Positions 5,031-57,316 of a stretch of 64,000 nucleotides of DNA are shown here, one piece after another. Position 1 is the first letter of the stretch. Each line of letters opens with the position of its first letter. Below the pieces are notes generated by a model, which was given only the letters and a program-made list of their open reading frames with translations, was not told the DNA's origin and did no database searches. Both the position numbers and the translations under genes were made by a program. Origin of the DNA: a virus; IMG/VR virus record IMGVR_UViG_3300026538_000054, positions 32,001 through 96,000 of that record; one strand, written 5' to 3'.

Positions 5031-5181
5031 GTACCAGAGCCATACGCAGCGGGCTAAAAGCTGCGAAGGATGGCGACCTGTGTCAAAGCCCTGCGCAGCG
5101 GGCTGAATGCTGCGAGAGGATGTCCCACTCCCTGGCCACGGTGGGTGACAAAGCCCTTTGCAGCGGGCTTAAAGCTGCGAC
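5031..5181 (+). CRISPR. Mini-array, 3 degenerate repeats (5031, 5080, 5145), spacers 12 and 28 bp
   Basis: Three 37-bp copies of the repeat. Confidence 0.75.
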
Positions 5182-5223: not shown

Positions 5224-5724
5224 ATGTCCGAACACGAGTTGCTGCGCTCCATCAATCAACGCCTCGCACACATAGGCCGCTCGACGGACGCTATCGCCTC
5301 GGCTGTCTTCCTTATCGTGCGAAAGTTGCTCGATGAGGAGCAAGGTGGCCTGTCGCCCGAAGACGCCGCCAAAGTGCTCGCCCGACTGACGGCCCACGAC
5401 CAAGCTCTCGAGGACATCGTCGCCGAGCAAACCGACGAGAGCTCTTCCACGCTCGGCAAACACCACTCAGTAGCGAGAACCGCGATGGCTATTCCGCAAG
5501 CCTTGCAGGACATCTTGGCCAAGATTGACGCCGACACCAGCGCCCTGGCCGCGGTGGTCCTGGACCTGCGCAACAAGATCAGCACGGGCATGTCCCAGGA
5601 GGACGTGGTCGCCGTACAGACCACCCTGGGTCAGATCGCCGACCGTCTCGAGCAGACGGCTCACGACCCCAACGCGCCGGTGCCGCCCGGCCCTCAACCG
5701 GTCTTCGCCGGCCGCAAGCCGTAA
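5224..5724 (+). CDS. Coiled-coil hypothetical protein (possible internal start at 5485)
   Basis: ORF track, helical composition. Confidence 0.55.
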   Translation: MSEHELLRSINQRLAHIGRSTDAIASAVFLIVRKLLDEEQGGLSPEDAAKVLARLTAHDQALEDIVAEQTDESSSTLGKHHSVARTAMAIPQALQDILAKIDADTSALAAVVLDLRNKISTGMSQEDVVAVQTTLGQIADRLEQTAHDPNAPVPPGPQPVFAGRKP

Positions 5725-24820: not shown

Positions 24821-24930
24821 GTTGCGGCATCCAGCCCGCCGCACAGGGCTTTGACACACGGTGAGACTGGGCGTAGCGTCATCGGTTCACGATGTTGCAG
24901 CTTTCAGCCCGCTGCAGAGGGCTTTGGAAC
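24821..24930 (-). CRISPR. Mini-array: repeat, 36-bp spacer, repeat
   Basis: Repeats 24894-24930 and 24821-24857, between xis and int. Confidence 0.85.
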
Positions 24931-25074
24931 AACGGCTAGATTATCAACAGGGAAGTTCTTTTCCGGAAAACGTGTTGTAGGCCCCGAAAATTCCTCTCCT
25001 GGGCGCGTATAAGAATAGTAGGGAGGGGCGGCCGGGTAAGGCCGGGACGGACCTGCCGGCCGCTCTTCCCATCT

Positions 25075-29051: not shown

Positions 29052-29163
29052 CAACAAGGCCGCCAGAGAGGCCTGCGTGTAGGATAGCGACCGGAAACTG
29101 TTTTCCGGAAAAGATTGGCTTCCCTCGCTAGTCTACACACAGGCCTCTCTGGCGGCCTTGTTG
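29052..29163. repeat. 31-bp inverted repeat enclosing TTTTCCGGAAAA
   Basis: CAACAAGGCCGCCAGAGAGGCCTGCGTGTAG / CTACACACAGGCCTCTCTGGCGGCCTTGTTG. Confidence 0.75.
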
Positions 29164-29207
29164 TCAGGAACGGAAAAGCAGCTTACGGTGCTGCTACGAT
29201 GACCGCT

Positions 29208-29315
29208 AGACCAAAGCCCTCCGCAATGGGCTAAAAGCTGCGACGGAGGCGGGAATACGCGACGACGCGACGTTCTACTTGCCAAAGCCCTCTGTAGCGG
29301 GCTAAAAGCTGCAAT
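29208..29315 (+). CRISPR. Mini-array: repeat, 34-bp spacer, repeat
   Basis: Repeats 29208-29244 and 29279-29315. Confidence 0.8.
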
Positions 29316-47324: not shown

Positions 47325-47361
47325 TTCGCAGCTTTTAGCCCGCTGCGTAGGGCTTGATCAC
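47325..47361 (-). repeat. Solitary CRISPR-like repeat antisense to operon
   Basis: Reverse complement GTGATCAAGCCCTACGCAGCGGGCTAAAAGCTGCGAA. Confidence 0.8.
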
Positions 47362-47415
47362 GTCTGCTAGCCCAGTGAAGCGCGCCGATTGGTCAAGTAG
47401 CGAGGGACAAGCACC

Positions 47416-47628
47416 ATGAGCGACAAAGCCTGGATCGTGTTGCGCTGTGAGATTTGTGATCGTGAAGAGGGCCCGATGACCAAGGCAGAGATGGTGACCT
47501 GCCGGAACGAAGGCTGGTCGGGCCTCGAGAGGGGATACTTCCCCGGCTGGTGGCCAAGACACATACCCATCACCTGGACGCATATGGGTGACTGCCCCGC
47601 GTGCGTCAAAGAGGCGAAAATAGCATGA
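47416..47628 (+). CDS. Small zinc-finger protein
   Basis: CEIC...CPAC. Confidence 0.6.
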   Translation: MSDKAWIVLRCEICDREEGPMTKAEMVTCRNEGWSGLERGYFPGWWPRHIPITWTHMGDCPACVKEAKIA

Positions 47629-49511: not shown

Positions 49512-49594
49512 CTCCTGCTAACATCACGGGTTGTCAAGCCCGCCGCGGCGGGCCTGTTGCCGCGACCACCCGATGTGCCACGCGTGAGAACTTC

Positions 49595-52417
49595 ATGCCC
49601 CTTAACAGCACCGCCGGCCAGGCCCTCGTGAACGCCGTCCTCCCTGAGGAACTGCGCAACCACGAGCGCGCCCTGGACAAGAAGGGCATGGCCTCGCTCA
49701 TGAAGGAGGTGGCCAGGAAGCACCCTGAGCAGTACCGAGAGGTCCTCTTTCGCCTGGGGAAGCTAGGCCATCTCACCGCCTACCACACAGGGTCTCTCTC
49801 CTTTGGCCTGGAACACATGCGCACCGCGGTCAGCGCCAGAGACATGAAGAGAAAGCTGCGCCAGGAGATCGATCAGATCTATGACCACCGTTCTCTATCT
49901 CAAAAAGAGAAAGAACAGAAGATCGTTGAGCTGGTGAGCTCCTATCAAGCTCCTCTCGAGAAGGCCGTCTACGACGAGTCCCTTGCCGAGGGAAACCCTC
50001 TTGCTCTGCAAGTTCTCTCAGGGGCCAGGGGCAACAAGACCAACCTGCGCTCCCTGAGAGGCGCTGATCTTCTCTACGTAGACCACAAGGACCAGCCCGT
50101 CCCCATCCCTATCTTGCGATCCTACTCCGAGGGCCTGACCCCGGCTGACTACTATGCCGGCAGTTTCGGAGCGCGAAAGGGCGTCATTGACGTCAAGCAG
50201 GGCGTGGCTGATTCGGGCTTCGCCTCCAAGTTGCTCGTCCAGATGTCTCATCGCCTGGTGACCACCTCTCTGGATCATCCCGAGCCACCCTCTCGTATCA
50301 GGGGCCTGCCTGTTGACCTTGACGACCCTGACAACGAAGGTGCTCTCCTCGCCCATGACATAGGGCCGTTCAAGAGAAACACCGTCCTCACCCCTGACGT
50401 GCTTCACCGGCTCAAGCAAGAAGGCCACAAACACCTCCTTGTGAGATCGCCTACCGTCGGCGGCCCGCCTGACGGAGGAGTGTACGCCCGTGACGTTGGT
50501 ATCAGAGAGAAGGGCGTGATATCTCCCGTAGGAGATTTCGTCGGCATCGCCGCCGCACAGGCTCTCTGCCTAGCTGAAGGCACGTTGGTCACCCTGGCTG
50601 ATCTCACTTTCAAGCGCATCGAAGAGGTCGCTCCGGGAGACCTTATTCTGGCGGCCAACAGCAAGGGTGAGACCGCTTCGGCCAAGGTGAACAGACGTTT
50701 CCTTAACGGCCCCCGTGCGTGTTTACGTTACTTCTGGTCGAATCAGGAGCATTCTGTTCTTGCCACGAGCGAACACAAAGTGCTCAGGCCTGACAAGACC
50801 GTCAGGCCCTTCGACCAGACCTCCGTGGTCTTGCTTCATACGCCTCAAGGGCCTACTCCAGCCGCCCTGGATGAGCCTCTTCATCAAGAGCCAATCATCC
50901 TGCCCACCTATGACCTGGAGATCGACCACCCCGAGCATCTCTACGTGCTCAAGGGCGGCTTGATCGTGGCCAACTCTGAGCCTCTTACCCAGAGCACGCT
51001 GGGCAGCAAGCACTCGGGGGGCGTAGCTGGGGCCAAGAAATCAGGGCCTACGGGCTTCAAATTGCTCTCTTGCTTGGGAGAAGGCACGTTGGTGCGCATG
51101 GCCGACGTGCCTTCCAAGGAGATTGAGAAGATCAAGCCGGGTGACAGGGTCATCGGTGCGAACTTGGAGGGGGGATGGTTCCCCGTCCAGGTCAAGAACG
51201 TCTTTGACAACGGCCAGCGCCCTTGTCGCACGTTCACCTTTGAGTCGATGCTTGGTGAGGAGAGCCTCACTGCCACGGACGACCATCTCGTACTGGCTCA
51301 GGCGCCCTGCTACAAGATCGACAAGACCCTGGCTGACAAGGGCCTGAAACGGTTTGATGAGTGGGAAGGCGGCCTCAAGGTCTCGCTGGGAGAGATACGC
51401 ACGGCGCATAACTTGCCTCACCCGTTGGCGCCTGTGGGCTACAGGCCTGTGAAGGCCGCCAAGGAGCCTGGTTCTCCAGGCGTTCGTGTCGAGCTCCTCT
51501 ACGCCACCCCTGAGGTGCTTCTCCCTACCTACGACCTGGAGGTGGATCACCCTGACCACCTCTTCGTCCTGGCCAACGGCCTGGTGGTGAGCAACTCGCA
51601 GATTCAGGTTCCCAAGGCCTTCCCATCTGGAGCTTCTCACTCTCAAGAAGATGGCCGCGTGCAAGCCGTCTTCCCTGCGCCCCAGGGCGGTAACTACGTG
51701 CAGGTCAACGGCCACAAGCACTACGTGGCCCCTGGCTTCGACGTCCTGGTCAAGCCAGGCGATGAGGTTGAATCTGGCGATGTTCTCAGCGAGGGAGTAC
51801 CGAACCCTGCGGAAGTGGTGGCTCACAAGGGCGTTGGAGAAGGCAGGGCCTACTTCGTCCAGGCGTTCAGAGACTCGTTCAAGCGCTCAGGCCTGCAGGC
51901 GCATCGCCGGAACATCGAGCTGGTCGCCAGGGGCCTGATTGACCATGTCAGGCTTACCGAGGAGCATGGGCACTACTCCCCGGATGACGTAGTGCAGTAC
52001 TCCCGTCTGGAGAGGGACTGGCAGCCAAGAGACGGTGCCAAGGAAAAGGCCCCCAACGAGGCCATGGGGCACTACCTGGAAGCGCCGGTGCTGCACTACT
52101 CCATCGGGACGAAGATCAGGCCCAGCGTGGTGAAGCGCCTGTCTCAGTTCGGCGTCAAGAGCGTGTTGGTGCATCAGCAACCACCGCCTTTTGAGCCTGA
52201 AATGGTCAGGGGGATGGAGAACCTGACCCATGACCCCGACTGGATGACGAGATTTCTGGGGCCTTATGTGAAAAAGAACTTCCTGAAGGGCGTTGCCAGG
52301 GGTGACATCTCCGACGAGGCCGGAAGCAGCTACGTCCCTTCTCTGGCCAGGGGAGCGGACTTCAACCGTCTGCCGCCTGTCAAGGGCTTTGACCCCAGGT
52401 CTCTGGGCCAGCTCTAA
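49595..52417 (+). CDS. Phage RNA polymerase beta' C-terminal subunit (two mini-inteins)
   Basis: SGARGN, SYSEGLT...GARKG (bridge helix), VGIAAAQAL|SEPLTQ...KHSGG (trigger loop), HRRNIELVAR. Confidence 0.93.
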   Translation: MPLNSTAGQALVNAVLPEELRNHERALDKKGMASLMKEVARKHPEQYREVLFRLGKLGHLTAYHTGSLSFGLEHMRTAVSARDMKRKLRQEIDQIYDHRSLSQKEKEQKIVELVSSYQAPLEKAVYDESLAEGNPLALQVLSGARGNKTNLRSLRGADLLYVDHKDQPVPIPILRSYSEGLTPADYYAGSFGARKGVIDVKQGVADSGFASKLLVQMSHRLVTTSLDHPEPPSRIRGLPVDLDDPDNEGALLAHDIGPFKRNTVLTPDVLHRLKQEGHKHLLVRSPTVGGPPDGGVYARDVGIREKGVISPVGDFVGIAAAQALCLAEGTLVTLADLTFKRIEEVAPGDLILAANSKGETASAKVNRRFLNGPRACLRYFWSNQEHSVLATSEHKVLRPDKTVRPFDQTSVVLLHTPQGPTPAALDEPLHQEPIILPTYDLEIDHPEHLYVLKGGLIVANSEPLTQSTLGSKHSGGVAGAKKSGPTGFKLLSCLGEGTLVRMADVPSKEIEKIKPGDRVIGANLEGGWFPVQVKNVFDNGQRPCRTFTFESMLGEESLTATDDHLVLAQAPCYKIDKTLADKGLKRFDEWEGGLKVSLGEIRTAHNLPHPLAPVGYRPVKAAKEPGSPGVRVELLYATPEVLLPTYDLEVDHPDHLFVLANGLVVSNSQIQVPKAFPSGASHSQEDGRVQAVFPAPQGGNYVQVNGHKHYVAPGFDVLVKPGDEVESGDVLSEGVPNPAEVVAHKGVGEGRAYFVQAFRDSFKRSGLQAHRRNIELVARGLIDHVRLTEEHGHYSPDDVVQYSRLERDWQPRDGAKEKAPNEAMGHYLEAPVLHYSIGTKIRPSVVKRLSQFGVKSVLVHQQPPPFEPEMVRGMENLTHDPDWMTRFLGPYVKKNFLKGVARGDISDEAGSSYVPSLARGADFNRLPPVKGFDPRSLGQL
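50567..50974 (+). mobile_element. Mini-intein 1 (136 aa)
   Basis: CLAEGTLV...TSEHK...TYDLEID...LIVAN|S. Confidence 0.9.
51071..51595 (+). mobile_element. Mini-intein 2 (175 aa)
   Basis: CLGEGTLV...TDDHL...TYDLEVD...LVVSN|S. Confidence 0.9.
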
Positions 52418-52446
52418 GCCCTGCGCAGCGGGCTAAATGCTGCGAC
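52416..52446 (+). repeat. Solitary CRISPR-like repeat overlapping beta' stop codon
   Basis: T-AAGCCCTGCGCAGCGGGCTAAATGCTGCGAC. Confidence 0.85.
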
Positions 52447-52503
52447 TTTCCGATGTGCCGTGTCTACCCTTGTCTGTTGCGCTACAGCGCGGAGGAAATT
52501 GCG

Positions 52504-52860
52504 ATGGATGGCTTTGGCCTGGTTCTCGGGCATCTGCTGGGCGACTACATTTTTCAAAACGACTGGATGGCCGCCAACAAGACCTCCCGTTCGTTCCCGT
52601 GCGCCGTTCACTGCACGGCGTACACGCTGGCCGTATGGCTCTGCTCCTTCTGGTGGCTACCTATCTGGGCGCTTGCGGTCATCTGGCTAGCCCACTTCCC
52701 GCTCGACCGCTGGCGGCTGGCAAAGCTCTGGATGGAACGAGTTTCCGGGCAGACCAAGTTCGCTTCGGCACCAGGTCTGGCTCCCTGGTCCGTCATCGTG
52801 GTGGACAACACCATGCACCTGACCGTGCTGTTCTTGCTGGGCGTGTTCGTCCAGGGGTGA
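52504..52860 (+). CDS. DUF3307 membrane protein
   Basis: GHLLGDYIFQNDWMA...H...HFPLD...DNTMH. Confidence 0.85.
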   Translation: MDGFGLVLGHLLGDYIFQNDWMAANKTSRSFPCAVHCTAYTLAVWLCSFWWLPIWALAVIWLAHFPLDRWRLAKLWMERVSGQTKFASAPGLAPWSVIVVDNTMHLTVLFLLGVFVQG

Positions 52861-52898: not shown

Positions 52899-53013
52899 TA
52901 GCCGAGCTGCCGCCCTGTACCAGGCCTCCGCAGCGGCCTTATTGCTGCGGCAGGATGTTGTGCAGGCAGTCGATGTGTCACGTCTCGCTCATCTTTCGCA
53001 CAAGGACACGACC

Positions 53014-55571: not shown

Positions 55572-56060
55572 GTGCTTCAGAAGGCCCTTGAGACCATCAG
55601 GGCCGTCGGCGTCAATCTGCCCGACCCTGCTCCCGGTCTCTGTACCGCCGTCGTGCGACCCTACTACCTGACGGCCGACCAGAACTGGCTCTGCATCGCG
55701 ACCCAGATACACGGGCAGGTCGTCTTCGTGCTCAATTTGTTTTCCGGAAAAGCACACGAGAATGAGCAATGCGTGGCCGATTGGCGGCCTGGTGATGCCC
55801 TGGATGACCAACTGCTTGAGCGATTGCGGCTCTTCGTCCGCGTTGACCATGAGGCCCTTCTCGCCCAGGCCAGGGCCCTGCTTCAGGGCTGGGTGGACAA
55901 ACAAGCCCATGACCGCTGCTGGTACTACCCTGATGTCTTCCGTGAGTTGGCTGCCTTGCTAGGCGTGAAGACGACCGTCCCTGGAGGCTTGCCGCCCAGG
56001 CCTGAGTTCGAGGACGGCTGCAGGAGATACCAGGACGAGGAGTACAACCGCACGGTTTGA
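55572..56060 (+). CDS. Hypothetical protein
   Basis: HDRCW...F...C motif. Confidence 0.55.
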   Translation: MLQKALETIRAVGVNLPDPAPGLCTAVVRPYYLTADQNWLCIATQIHGQVVFVLNLFSGKAHENEQCVADWRPGDALDDQLLERLRLFVRVDHEALLAQARALLQGWVDKQAHDRCWYYPDVFRELAALLGVKTTVPGGLPPRPEFEDGCRRYQDEEYNRTV

Positions 56061-56351
56061 CAGCTCACCTGTTTACCATTACGCTGGAGAGCTCCAGCGT
56101 AATGGTAAGGTTCTCAGCAAGGCCTTCTCGGCGGCCTCGATGCCGTGAAATGCCGTCGGCGCTGCGCTAAATGCCGCAACTCGACCTTGCACACTCGCTC
56201 GCGGGCCAGTAGCATGATGGTGCTCGGAGTGCGTGTTGAGCAGGACAGAGGAAGAAGCCTAGTAGTGTAAGCCGTTCCCCGCGCGGACAGAGCGCCGCCA
56301 ATAGTGGGCCGCGTCGAACAGCTACCCGACGACCTGACCGACGAGCAGAAC

Positions 56352-56592
56352 GAGCAAAAGCCCTGTGCAGCGGGCTGGATGCTGCAACTCTAGCAGTTGG
56401 GGCCAGGACAGGCCTTGCTACACGTACTGAAGCCCTATACAGCGGGCTGATAGCTGTAGCACGGCGAGCGCGTCGACGCCGAGTGGTCAACGCACTGAAG
56501 CCCTCTGCGGCGGGCTGAATGCTGCAACTGGAAGTAGTTGTTCGACAAGGTGGTCGCACCGAAGCCCTCTATAGTGGGCTGAAAGCTGCAGC
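56352..56592 (+). CRISPR. Degenerate array, 4 repeats (56352, 56424, 56492, 56556), spacers 35, 31 and 27 bp
   Basis: Four 37-bp copies; half repeat at 56166-56180. Confidence 0.85.
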
Positions 56593-56626
56593 AGGAGACC
56601 GAGAGCTTGGCGGCCCGGCCCATACC

Positions 56627-56881
56627 ATGTCTACACGCACCATCACCGTCCACGATCGATGTACAAAATGCAACCGCACGCTCCACTTCATATCCGAAGG
56701 CGAGCGAGGCGTGTGCGGTCCTTGCTGGGTGGCCTCTCTCGCGCCCGAGACCAAGAAGGCCATAAATCGCGTGATCGCCAGCGCCTTCAACGGCAGCGGC
56801 GAAGAAGAGAAGAGCCAGGCCGTTGATGGGGCCATGAAGGCCCTCCAGCAAGAAGACAAGAAGCCCTCTGCAGCGGGCTGA
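56627..56881 (+). CDS. Small Zn-finger protein embedded between array repeats
   Basis: CTKCNRTL...SE-x-ERGVCGPC; TGA stop lies inside the next repeat. Confidence 0.65.
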   Translation: MSTRTITVHDRCTKCNRTLHFISEGERGVCGPCWVASLAPETKKAINRVIASAFNGSGEEEKSQAVDGAMKALQQEDKKPSAAG

Positions 56882-56949
56882 AAGCTGCAACTGGAAATAC
56901 TCAAGCATGGGAGTGCCAAAGCCCTCTGTAGCGGGCTAAAAGCTGCGAC
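56861..56949 (+). CRISPR. Mini-array: repeat, 21-bp spacer, repeat
   Basis: Repeats 56861-56891 and 56913-56949. Confidence 0.8.
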
Positions 56950-56963
56950 TGGCGACCGGAGCG

Positions 56964-57155
56964 ATGACGCGCATGTCCGTCGAGGACGACAAGTTCTGGA
57001 ACGAGGTAGTAGGCGATCTCCGCAAGAAGCGAGGCTTTGGCCCGCTCACGCCAGAAGAGGCCCAGGCGGCCTATGACGCCGCGCCGGAAGAGCCTCTCTC
57101 CGAGGACAGGATCAAGGAGATCGTCAAATACGCCGTTTCAGGCGGCCAGGGCTAA
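56964..57155 (+). CDS. Hypothetical protein
   Basis: Short ORF followed by terminator. Confidence 0.55.
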   Translation: MTRMSVEDDKFWNEVVGDLRKKRGFGPLTPEEAQAAYDAAPEEPLSEDRIKEIVKYAVSGGQG

Positions 57156-57193: not shown

Positions 57194-57232
57194 AGAAGCG
57201 CCTACTGGAAAACCAGTAGGCGCTTCTTTTGT
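57194..57232 (+). terminator. Intrinsic terminator
   Basis: AGAAGCGCCTACTGG-AAAA-CCAGTAGGCGCTTCT-TTTGT. Confidence 0.75.
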
Positions 57233-57316
57233 CTGTATCATCCCGATAAGCCAGGTGGCCAGGGCGGAGCAGAGGCCACCTGGCACCGTACACGCCTTCA
57301 ACGAGAAGTAGGCTTG

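Follow-up and report, generated by a model that had tools for sequence, protein, structure and literature searches.

Organization of the repeat cluster and its two genes

Between 56.1 and 57.23 kb, the analysed window, a stretch of 64,000 nucleotides of a phage contig (G000:C51:70146-134145, reversed), harbours a cluster of six degenerate 37-nt repeats (R1–R6, 56352–56949), all located on the plus strand and recognized by a covariance model with scores of 44–57 bits (Table 1). The intervals between successive repeats amount to 35, 31, 27, 262 and 21 nt. The occurrence of the repeat greatly exceeds chance, as its 29-nt core is matched 13 times in the window with up to three mismatches and a looser pattern 27 times, compared to 0.00 and 0.57 matches expected from shuffled sequences. 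Scans of the window against Rfam and for tRNAs returned no match.

The original prediction had placed an 84-residue Zn-finger ORF between two repeats, with its stop codon contributed by the TGA of the second, and another ORF behind the last repeat. This arrangement is borne out by our analysis. ORF84 fills the interval between the repeats starting at 56556 (R4) and 56855 (R5), and its TGA coincides with columns 25–27 of R5, as is also the case in the related contig L022. Codons 77–84 (KKPSAAG and the stop) are encoded by R5, whose 5' segment departs from the consensus. The second ORF (56964/56973–57155, hereafter ORF63) is equally well defined by its coding score of +31 and by its homologues. 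A third candidate, a 120-residue ORF that gene callers start at an ATG within R3, is spurious. On the 5' side of R1, a position weight matrix of the promoter-like box that precedes other repeat copies identified no site above the cut-off, the candidate TAGCAT scoring below it.

Table 1. Features of the repeat cluster and of related elements on the same or other contigs (window coordinates unless a locus is named)
Feature	Position	Strand	Remarks
Hairpin, 16–17 bp	56073–56108	+	Just 3' of the stop of the upstream gene (55572–56060); lacks a U tract; putative terminator or stabiliser; also present in L022, where C-G replaces T-A (compensatory)
Two decayed repeat relics	56112–56180	+	70–77% identity in repeat search; miss the E=1 threshold with the covariance model; kept in L022
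Candidate -10 box TAGCAT	56210–56215	+	TAGTAT in L022; resembles the TGnTAnnATGA box before other repeat copies
Repeat R1	56352–56388	+	52.0 bits; identical copy in L022 (921–957)
Spacer S1	56389–56423	+	35 nt; absent from L022
Repeat R2	56424–56460	+	43.8 bits; pair 16-34 changed to A-U (compensatory)
Spacer S2	56461–56491	+	31 nt; first 17 nt unchanged in L022, directly after R4'
Repeat R3	56492–56528	+	52.3 bits
Spacer S3	56529–56555	+	27 nt; 26/27 nt identical in L022
Repeat R4	56556–56592	+	44.6 bits; heads the ORF84 leader; homologue R4' in L022 (985–1021)
ORF84	56627–56881	+	ATG 56627, TGA 56879–56881; 84 codons
Repeat R5	56855–56891	+	51.4 bits; overlaps the last 27 nt of ORF84
Spacer S5	56892–56912	+	21 nt; absent from L022
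Repeat R6	56913–56949	+	57.3 bits; ORF63 starts 14 nt (or 23 nt) further 3'
ORF63/60	56973–57155	+	Small acidic protein of 60 aa; alternative ATG at 56964 (60–63 codons)
Intrinsic terminator	57194–57233	+	Stem of 15 bp with a T run behind it; kept in L022 with compensatory stem changes
Main CRISPR array	about -4984 to -3696 (L001:3697-4985)	- (in L001)	18 regular repeats, the same as in the cluster; spacers of 36–38 nt
Repeats before cas12m	about -7383 to -7051 (L001:7040-7470)	- (in L001)	One sense and one antisense copy
Divergent repeat members	52917–52951; L010:865-901; L010:1887-1923	+ (window copy)	Compensatory changes in the stems
TTTTCCGGAAAAGAA-like motif	24894–24990; 1198–1290; 29150–29208; L002:2150-2180	-; -; +; 	Palindromic

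The phage genome and its Cas12m

The contig that contains the window carries an exact terminal repeat of 100 nt and is thus a closed circular genome of about 199 kb. Its genes are almost all located on the same strand, with 89% of the genome coding, and matches to a baseplate wedge protein, ribonucleotide reductase, DnaB and SbcC identify it as a jumbo tailed phage. About 4–7 kb before the window, it carries the array of 18 repeats and, directly upstream of the array and about 61 kb from the cluster on the same circle, the gene for a Cas12m of 628 residues (P0001; match to the PDB entry 23vw_A with E=2.8e-52). This is the sole Cas12m of the genome, none being found elsewhere in the MAG, which is 100% complete. 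Searches detected no Cas1 in genome or MAG, no Y1 transposase on the phage contig, and no match in viral contigs when anchored on a Cas12m locus.

The repeats as Cas12m crRNA scaffolds

In an alignment of 42 distinct repeat copies, with a mean column identity of 83%, columns 8–37 are conserved and columns 1–7 are free to vary. The conserved part fits an H-type pseudoknot composed of two interleaved stems (8–12/21–25 and 15–20/30–35), with 97.8% of the alignment cells being paired. In stem II, four of the six pairs have changed on both sides, with frequent G-U intermediates, and the observed pairing and covariation values were reached in none of 500 shuffles. This stem and pseudoknot geometry is the one described for the type V-M crRNA of MmCas12m2 (PMC10442227, section 7). 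In that RNA, the first 7 nt at the 5' end are disordered, positions -22 to -17 pair with -8 to -3, the protein reads A(-2) and C(-1), and the guide forms 17 bp with its target. In our alignment, A(-2) is conserved in at least 90% of the copies and C(-1) is kept in 26 of 42, with a change to A in about 30% of the dispersed ones. The dispersed copies thus retain exactly the part of the scaffold that is ordered and bound by the protein in the solved complexes. Judged from these patterns, the cluster repeats are genuine, although degenerate, Cas12m crRNA scaffolds, and selection acts on the RNA of the displayed strand, where pairing is kept by compensatory and G-U changes. Divergent members carry GGCC/GGCC in stem I and some of them also CTCAGC/GCTGAG in stem II, thus with compensatory changes in both stems (Table 1).

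ORF84 and ORF63 as genes

Both ORFs show the hallmarks of genuine genes. Scored with a codon model derived from the long ORFs of the contig, each has its own frame as the best, in case of ORF84 (+18) among all six. ORF84 has homologues with 59–71% identity, distributed over 41 representative clusters at E<1e-3, which share four invariant or near-invariant cysteines in addition to E24 and G28, whereas the homologues of ORF63 are 60–86% identical. Between ORF84 and its copy in L022 we count 11 synonymous changes and a single non-synonymous one. Given this ratio and the homologues, the objection foreseen by the original prediction, an untranslated ORF without homologues, does not apply. Coding scores, homology and substitution pattern together indicate that ORF84 and ORF63 are both real genes under purifying selection. 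ORF84 is predicted to be a small protein consisting of a four-cysteine zinc-ribbon and a helical part, for which AlphaFold2 returned a model with a pLDDT of 88 whose disorder is confined to the repeat-encoded tail. It matches no Pfam family and no PDB structure in Foldseek, and its PHROG match is weak. Since the homology ends at about residue 78, the tail is an add-on supplied by the repeat. As a separate observation, the ORF84 protein is 99% identical between the window (56627–56881) and L022 (1093–1347), compared to 83%, 86% and 59% for its neighbours, which points to either unusually strong constraint or a recent exchange of the gene together with R5.

Fixed genes and variable repeat units in a relative

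The main comparison for the locus is provided by L022, a JGI contig of 2.6 kb, which shows synteny to the window and a column identity of 87% (13% divergence). It preserves the end of the upstream gene with the hairpin, the leader with its two decayed repeats and a TAG(C/T)AT box, the repeat-encoded tail of ORF84 with the TGA inside R5' (L022 1321–1356) and another repeat in front of ORF63, followed by the terminator. The conserved start codon of ORF63 corresponds to the ATG at 56973 (60 aa). The composition of the repeat part differs, with the order R1-S1-R2-S2-R3-S3-R4 in the window contrasting with R1'-S3'-R4' in L022. Moreover, the 16 nt that are located 3' of R6 in the window fall into the R5'–R6' interval of L022, where, measured against the flank common to both, the repeat before ORF63 is shifted downstream by 16 nt. 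A scaffold 14–23 nt before the ORF63 start is present independently in both lineages. The comparison implies that the genes are fixed and that repeat-spacer units have been gained, lost or moved around them. Genes spaced in an identical manner (84 aa, 94 nt, 60 aa, 166 nt and 237 aa) are found in a contig from a sample that contains an 86%-identical Cas12m. Distant homologues of ORF84 (L006, L007, L019 and the contig of P0006) and of ORF63 (L020) reside in tight operons without repeats, and the ORF84 family is found in unrelated gene neighbourhoods. These relationships do not support the suggestion of the original prediction that insertion of genes into arrays could have dispersed the solitary repeats, and its proposed comparison revealed no relative with an uninterrupted array among those compared.

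Dispersed repeat copies across the genome

The cluster is the dense local case of about 38 scaffolds that are distributed throughout the genome at gene boundaries. A combined search with an HMM and the covariance model identified the 18 copies of the array, about 38 strong and about six divergent dispersed copies, all on the phage contig, with none of the 56 strong matches being located elsewhere in the MAG. In 120 genomes of the host's family we found none with more than a single chance-level match, and repeat-pattern scans of viral, metagenome and genome contigs revealed no multi-copy relative, the viral contigs contributing one lone copy. The latter (L005:9106-9141, 31 bits with the covariance model) is a single repeat-like element on an otherwise unrelated viral contig of 40 kb (IMGVR_UViG_3300029822_000027).

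Of the non-array copies, 35 out of 38 are located outside predicted coding sequence, the exceptions being R5 and two doubtful gene calls. They occur in two settings. In one, a TGnTAnnATGA box of the extended -10 type is located 7–8 nt before the repeat, as found for 13–14 copies and for the leader of the array. In the other, the copies begin at, or a few nucleotides from, the stop codon of a co-oriented gene and end 4–42 nt before the next start. Repeats also bracket the genes at 49595–52417 (the C part of RNA polymerase beta') and 52453–52860, and the former gene as well as the gene at 241–750 likewise have their stop codon inside a repeat. Modules of two repeats precede genes at 5080/5145, 22658/22731 and 120716/120760, and further pairs are located at 29208/29279 and 24894/24821. 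Other mini-arrays contain spacers of just 7 and 12 nt, below the guide length of 17 nt, which points to the scaffold as being more important than the guide.

Spacers and their targets

None of the cluster spacers has a detectable target in the phage or the MAG, whether searched by BLAST-short, seed or 17-mer, or in GenBank phages. Equally, the guides of dispersed copies and mini-arrays gave matches in phage and MAG that do not rise above the reversed-guide control, and in GenBank phages either low-complexity matches or nothing. The searches of phage and MAG instead returned two self-matches of the main array only. Its spacer 1 is identical over 36/36 nt to positions 5634–5669 of the window, inside the phage gene 5224–5724 and with a TTG PAM, and its spacer 15 matches 34/36 nt close to the end of the contig, where the flank is ATC. 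Gene 5224–5724 is located just downstream of a mini-array of three repeats (5031–5181).

A model of Cas12m-dependent expression

The Cas12m enzymes described in the literature bind to DNA but do not cut it, and they process their pre-crRNA 5' of the scaffold (PMC10442227, PMC11013384). This described 5' processing, together with the presence of the effector on the same genome and the covariation in stem II, makes processing of the cluster transcript plausible. We propose, with a probability of about one half, that the region of approximately 56.1–57.23 kb constitutes one conserved operon, which interleaves six Cas12m scaffolds with two small genes whose expression is negatively tied to the occupancy by Cas12m. 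In such a mechanism, Cas12m would bind every scaffold on the transcript and cut 5' of each, which would yield the crRNA-like RNAs R1-S1, R2-S2, R3-S3 and R5-S5, an R4-headed RNA containing ORF84 and an R6-headed RNA containing ORF63. Since the mature scaffold requires columns 8–37, the cut at R5 would fall upstream of the TGA and leave the ORF84 RNA without a stop codon. The claim of the original prediction that array processing releases a monocistronic mRNA would therefore hold with respect to the processing, which is plausible, but not with respect to its product, which would not be an intact mRNA. Conversely, with the TGA residing inside R5, a terminating ribosome would cover the entire repeat, and translation of ORF84 and binding or cleavage by Cas12m at R5 would thus be mutually exclusive. 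At the other gene, the GGAG and ATG of ORF63 are contained in the first 17 nt after R6, and this segment, including the ribosome-binding site, would be held by Cas12m as guide. From the stop codon in R5 and the position of this ribosome-binding site we infer the negative relationship between Cas12m occupancy and the expression of both proteins. A feature that counts against this operon is the A at position -1 in about 30% of the dispersed copies, a base that is read specifically in MmCas12m2. More tentatively still, and with somewhat less confidence than in the operon itself, we suggest that the nuclease-silent Cas12m might serve as sequence-specific reader of the jumbo phage's own mRNAs, with the competition between binding or cleavage and translation acting as a post-transcriptional switch.

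Alternative interpretations

The strongest competitor to this proposal, which we consider unlikely but worth weighing, is that the cluster comprises one or two small working CRISPR arrays that guide Cas12m against competing phages or plasmids, with the genes being passengers on their transcript. The periodicity of 64–72 nt would also fit a plain guide-producing array, as would the retention of S3 and of the first 17 nt of S2 in L022. Moreover, all spacers, with their lengths of 21–35 nt, reach the 17 nt of the heteroduplex, and the main array does target DNA by virtue of its spacer 1. However, the matches of the cluster spacers are no commoner than those of reversed-guide controls, and the stop codon in R5, the repeats that abut start codons and the spacers of 7–12 nt elsewhere are left unexplained. 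The same shared architecture in L022, preserved despite 13% divergence, speaks against a functionless leftover of an array duplication in the course of decay, the least probable of the readings considered here. The degenerate repeats, the spacers that shrink along the cluster and the two relics at its 5' end would be expected of such a remnant, but not a pseudoknot that is kept by compensatory changes, nor a repeat just before ORF63 in both lineages independently.

It appears improbable that the repeats are boundaries of cassettes recombining at the level of DNA, where genes inserted into a pre-existing array would have scattered its repeats. Layouts of repeat, gene and repeat do recur, the window and L022 differ by a shuffling of units and the ORF84 family is found in different contexts, yet it is the gene order that is fixed between the two loci and the repeat units that vary. 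In addition, the G-U-compatible changes and the strand-specific orientation indicate selection on RNA, and neither a Cas1 in the MAG, a Y1 transposase on the contig nor a relative with an uninterrupted array was seen. In light of the missing Y1 transposase, a transposon-style spread of the repeats was set aside. We ascribe an even lower probability to the repeats being RNA decoys that titrate the Cas12m of the host or of a competitor. The inhibition of Cas effectors by solitary repeats of viruses is established (PMC10651486), but the only Cas12m and the only repeat copies of the MAG are encoded on the phage contig itself, and the copies are located at gene boundaries instead of one anti-defence locus.

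Relationship to known systems

The locus shares its homologous effector with the type V-M systems of MmCas12m2, GoCas12m and MsCas12m, and its repeats the stem and pseudoknot within 36–37 nt that usually end in AC. The TTG PAM of the perfect self-target is a further common feature. These systems employ a single crRNA without the need for a tracrRNA, processed 5' of the scaffold (PMC10442227, PMC11013384). The main array displays the regularity of near-identical repeats and unique spacers of about 36 nt, whereas the cluster does not, as its copies differ and the gap of 262 nt is a gene. Unlike in type V-M, the system is borne by a phage without Cas1, and its repeats are degenerate, found genome-wide at gene boundaries and interleaved with genes, one of them supplying a stop codon. 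The myxophage MV-1 has been reported to encode a Cas12m next to an array, without adaptation genes (bioRxiv 10.64898/2026.09.14.751636), but this report describes no protospacers, dispersed repeats or genes between repeats.

With regulatory mini-arrays and crRNA-like RNAs (CreA/CreTA, scaRNA and viral Cracr) the cluster has in common degenerate repeats that flank short or shrinking spacers, multiplexed units on a mobile element and a use that is presumably regulatory rather than directed towards cleavage. In these RNAs, the spacer is partly complementary to a promoter and the Cas protein is usually borrowed from the host (Shmakov 2023, bioRxiv 10.1101/2023.03.03.530964; Liu et al., bioRxiv 10.1101/2024.10.29.618823). 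Here, by contrast, the Cas protein is the phage's own, the units reside inside mRNAs and no target was found, as neither seeds nor 17-mers of the cluster spacers matched a PAM-flanked promoter or gene target above the level of the reversed-guide control. Racr solitary repeat units (PMC10651486) resemble the dispersed copies as lone viral repeats that keep the effector-binding fold. Racrs mimic a host repeat to poison host effectors, whereas in our case the host MAG has no matching system, as all 56 matches are located on the phage contig and neither Cas12m nor Cas1 is found elsewhere. Finally, integron-like cassette arrays are characterized by an integrase and by attC sites of 57–141 nt, and the repeats described here are RNA-type scaffolds of 37 nt.

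CRISPR effectors are known for their action on foreign DNA and, via mini-arrays, on a few promoters. If the proposed operon holds, it would provide a case of a Cas12 protein that acts in cis on mRNAs, by processing, control of translation or capping of 5' ends, thus adding a post-transcriptional role to type V systems, and it would represent a compact natural design for Cas12m-controlled operons. With the locus being small and well defined, this idea is directly testable. Whereas Cas12m, viral mini-arrays, solitary repeat units and regulatory crRNA-like RNAs were already known, the new elements are the operon with a gene inside an array, the finding that a related phage conserves it, the turnover of repeat units while the genes stay in place, and the consequence of a cut at R5 for the stop codon. 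A search of the literature found no paper on protein genes between effector-binding repeats or on a stop codon supplied by a repeat.

Additional sequence motifs associated with the repeats

Several motifs accompany the repeats elsewhere on the contig. A palindromic TTTTCCGGAAAAGAA-like motif is located about 20–35 nt upstream of several promoter-bearing copies (Table 1) and could serve as -35 element or as operator. The repeats that bracket the gene for the C part of RNA polymerase beta' (49530–49566 and 52410–52459) have in common the 10-mer CCGATGTGCC, located 3 nt behind each of them. The 11-mer TCGCTCATGGT opens both spacer 2 of the main array (L001:4874-4910) and a solitary unit of the window (47325–47361, minus strand). 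Its reverse complement corresponds to the start context ACCATGAGCGA, which is common to the genes at 47413, 86506 and -18844 (window coordinates), and the site at 47423 (within 47413–47423) carries a TTG PAM. Repeats are also found in front of the effector gene itself, where a degenerate sense copy is located 125 nt upstream of cas12m, together with an antisense copy that has a promoter box of its own, an arrangement that could be an autoregulatory unit. The relative L015, whose Cas12m is 86% identical, lacks a sense copy in front of cas12m, and in L017, a phage-like locus with a 31%-identical Cas12m, three degenerate repeats are located directly before the gene.
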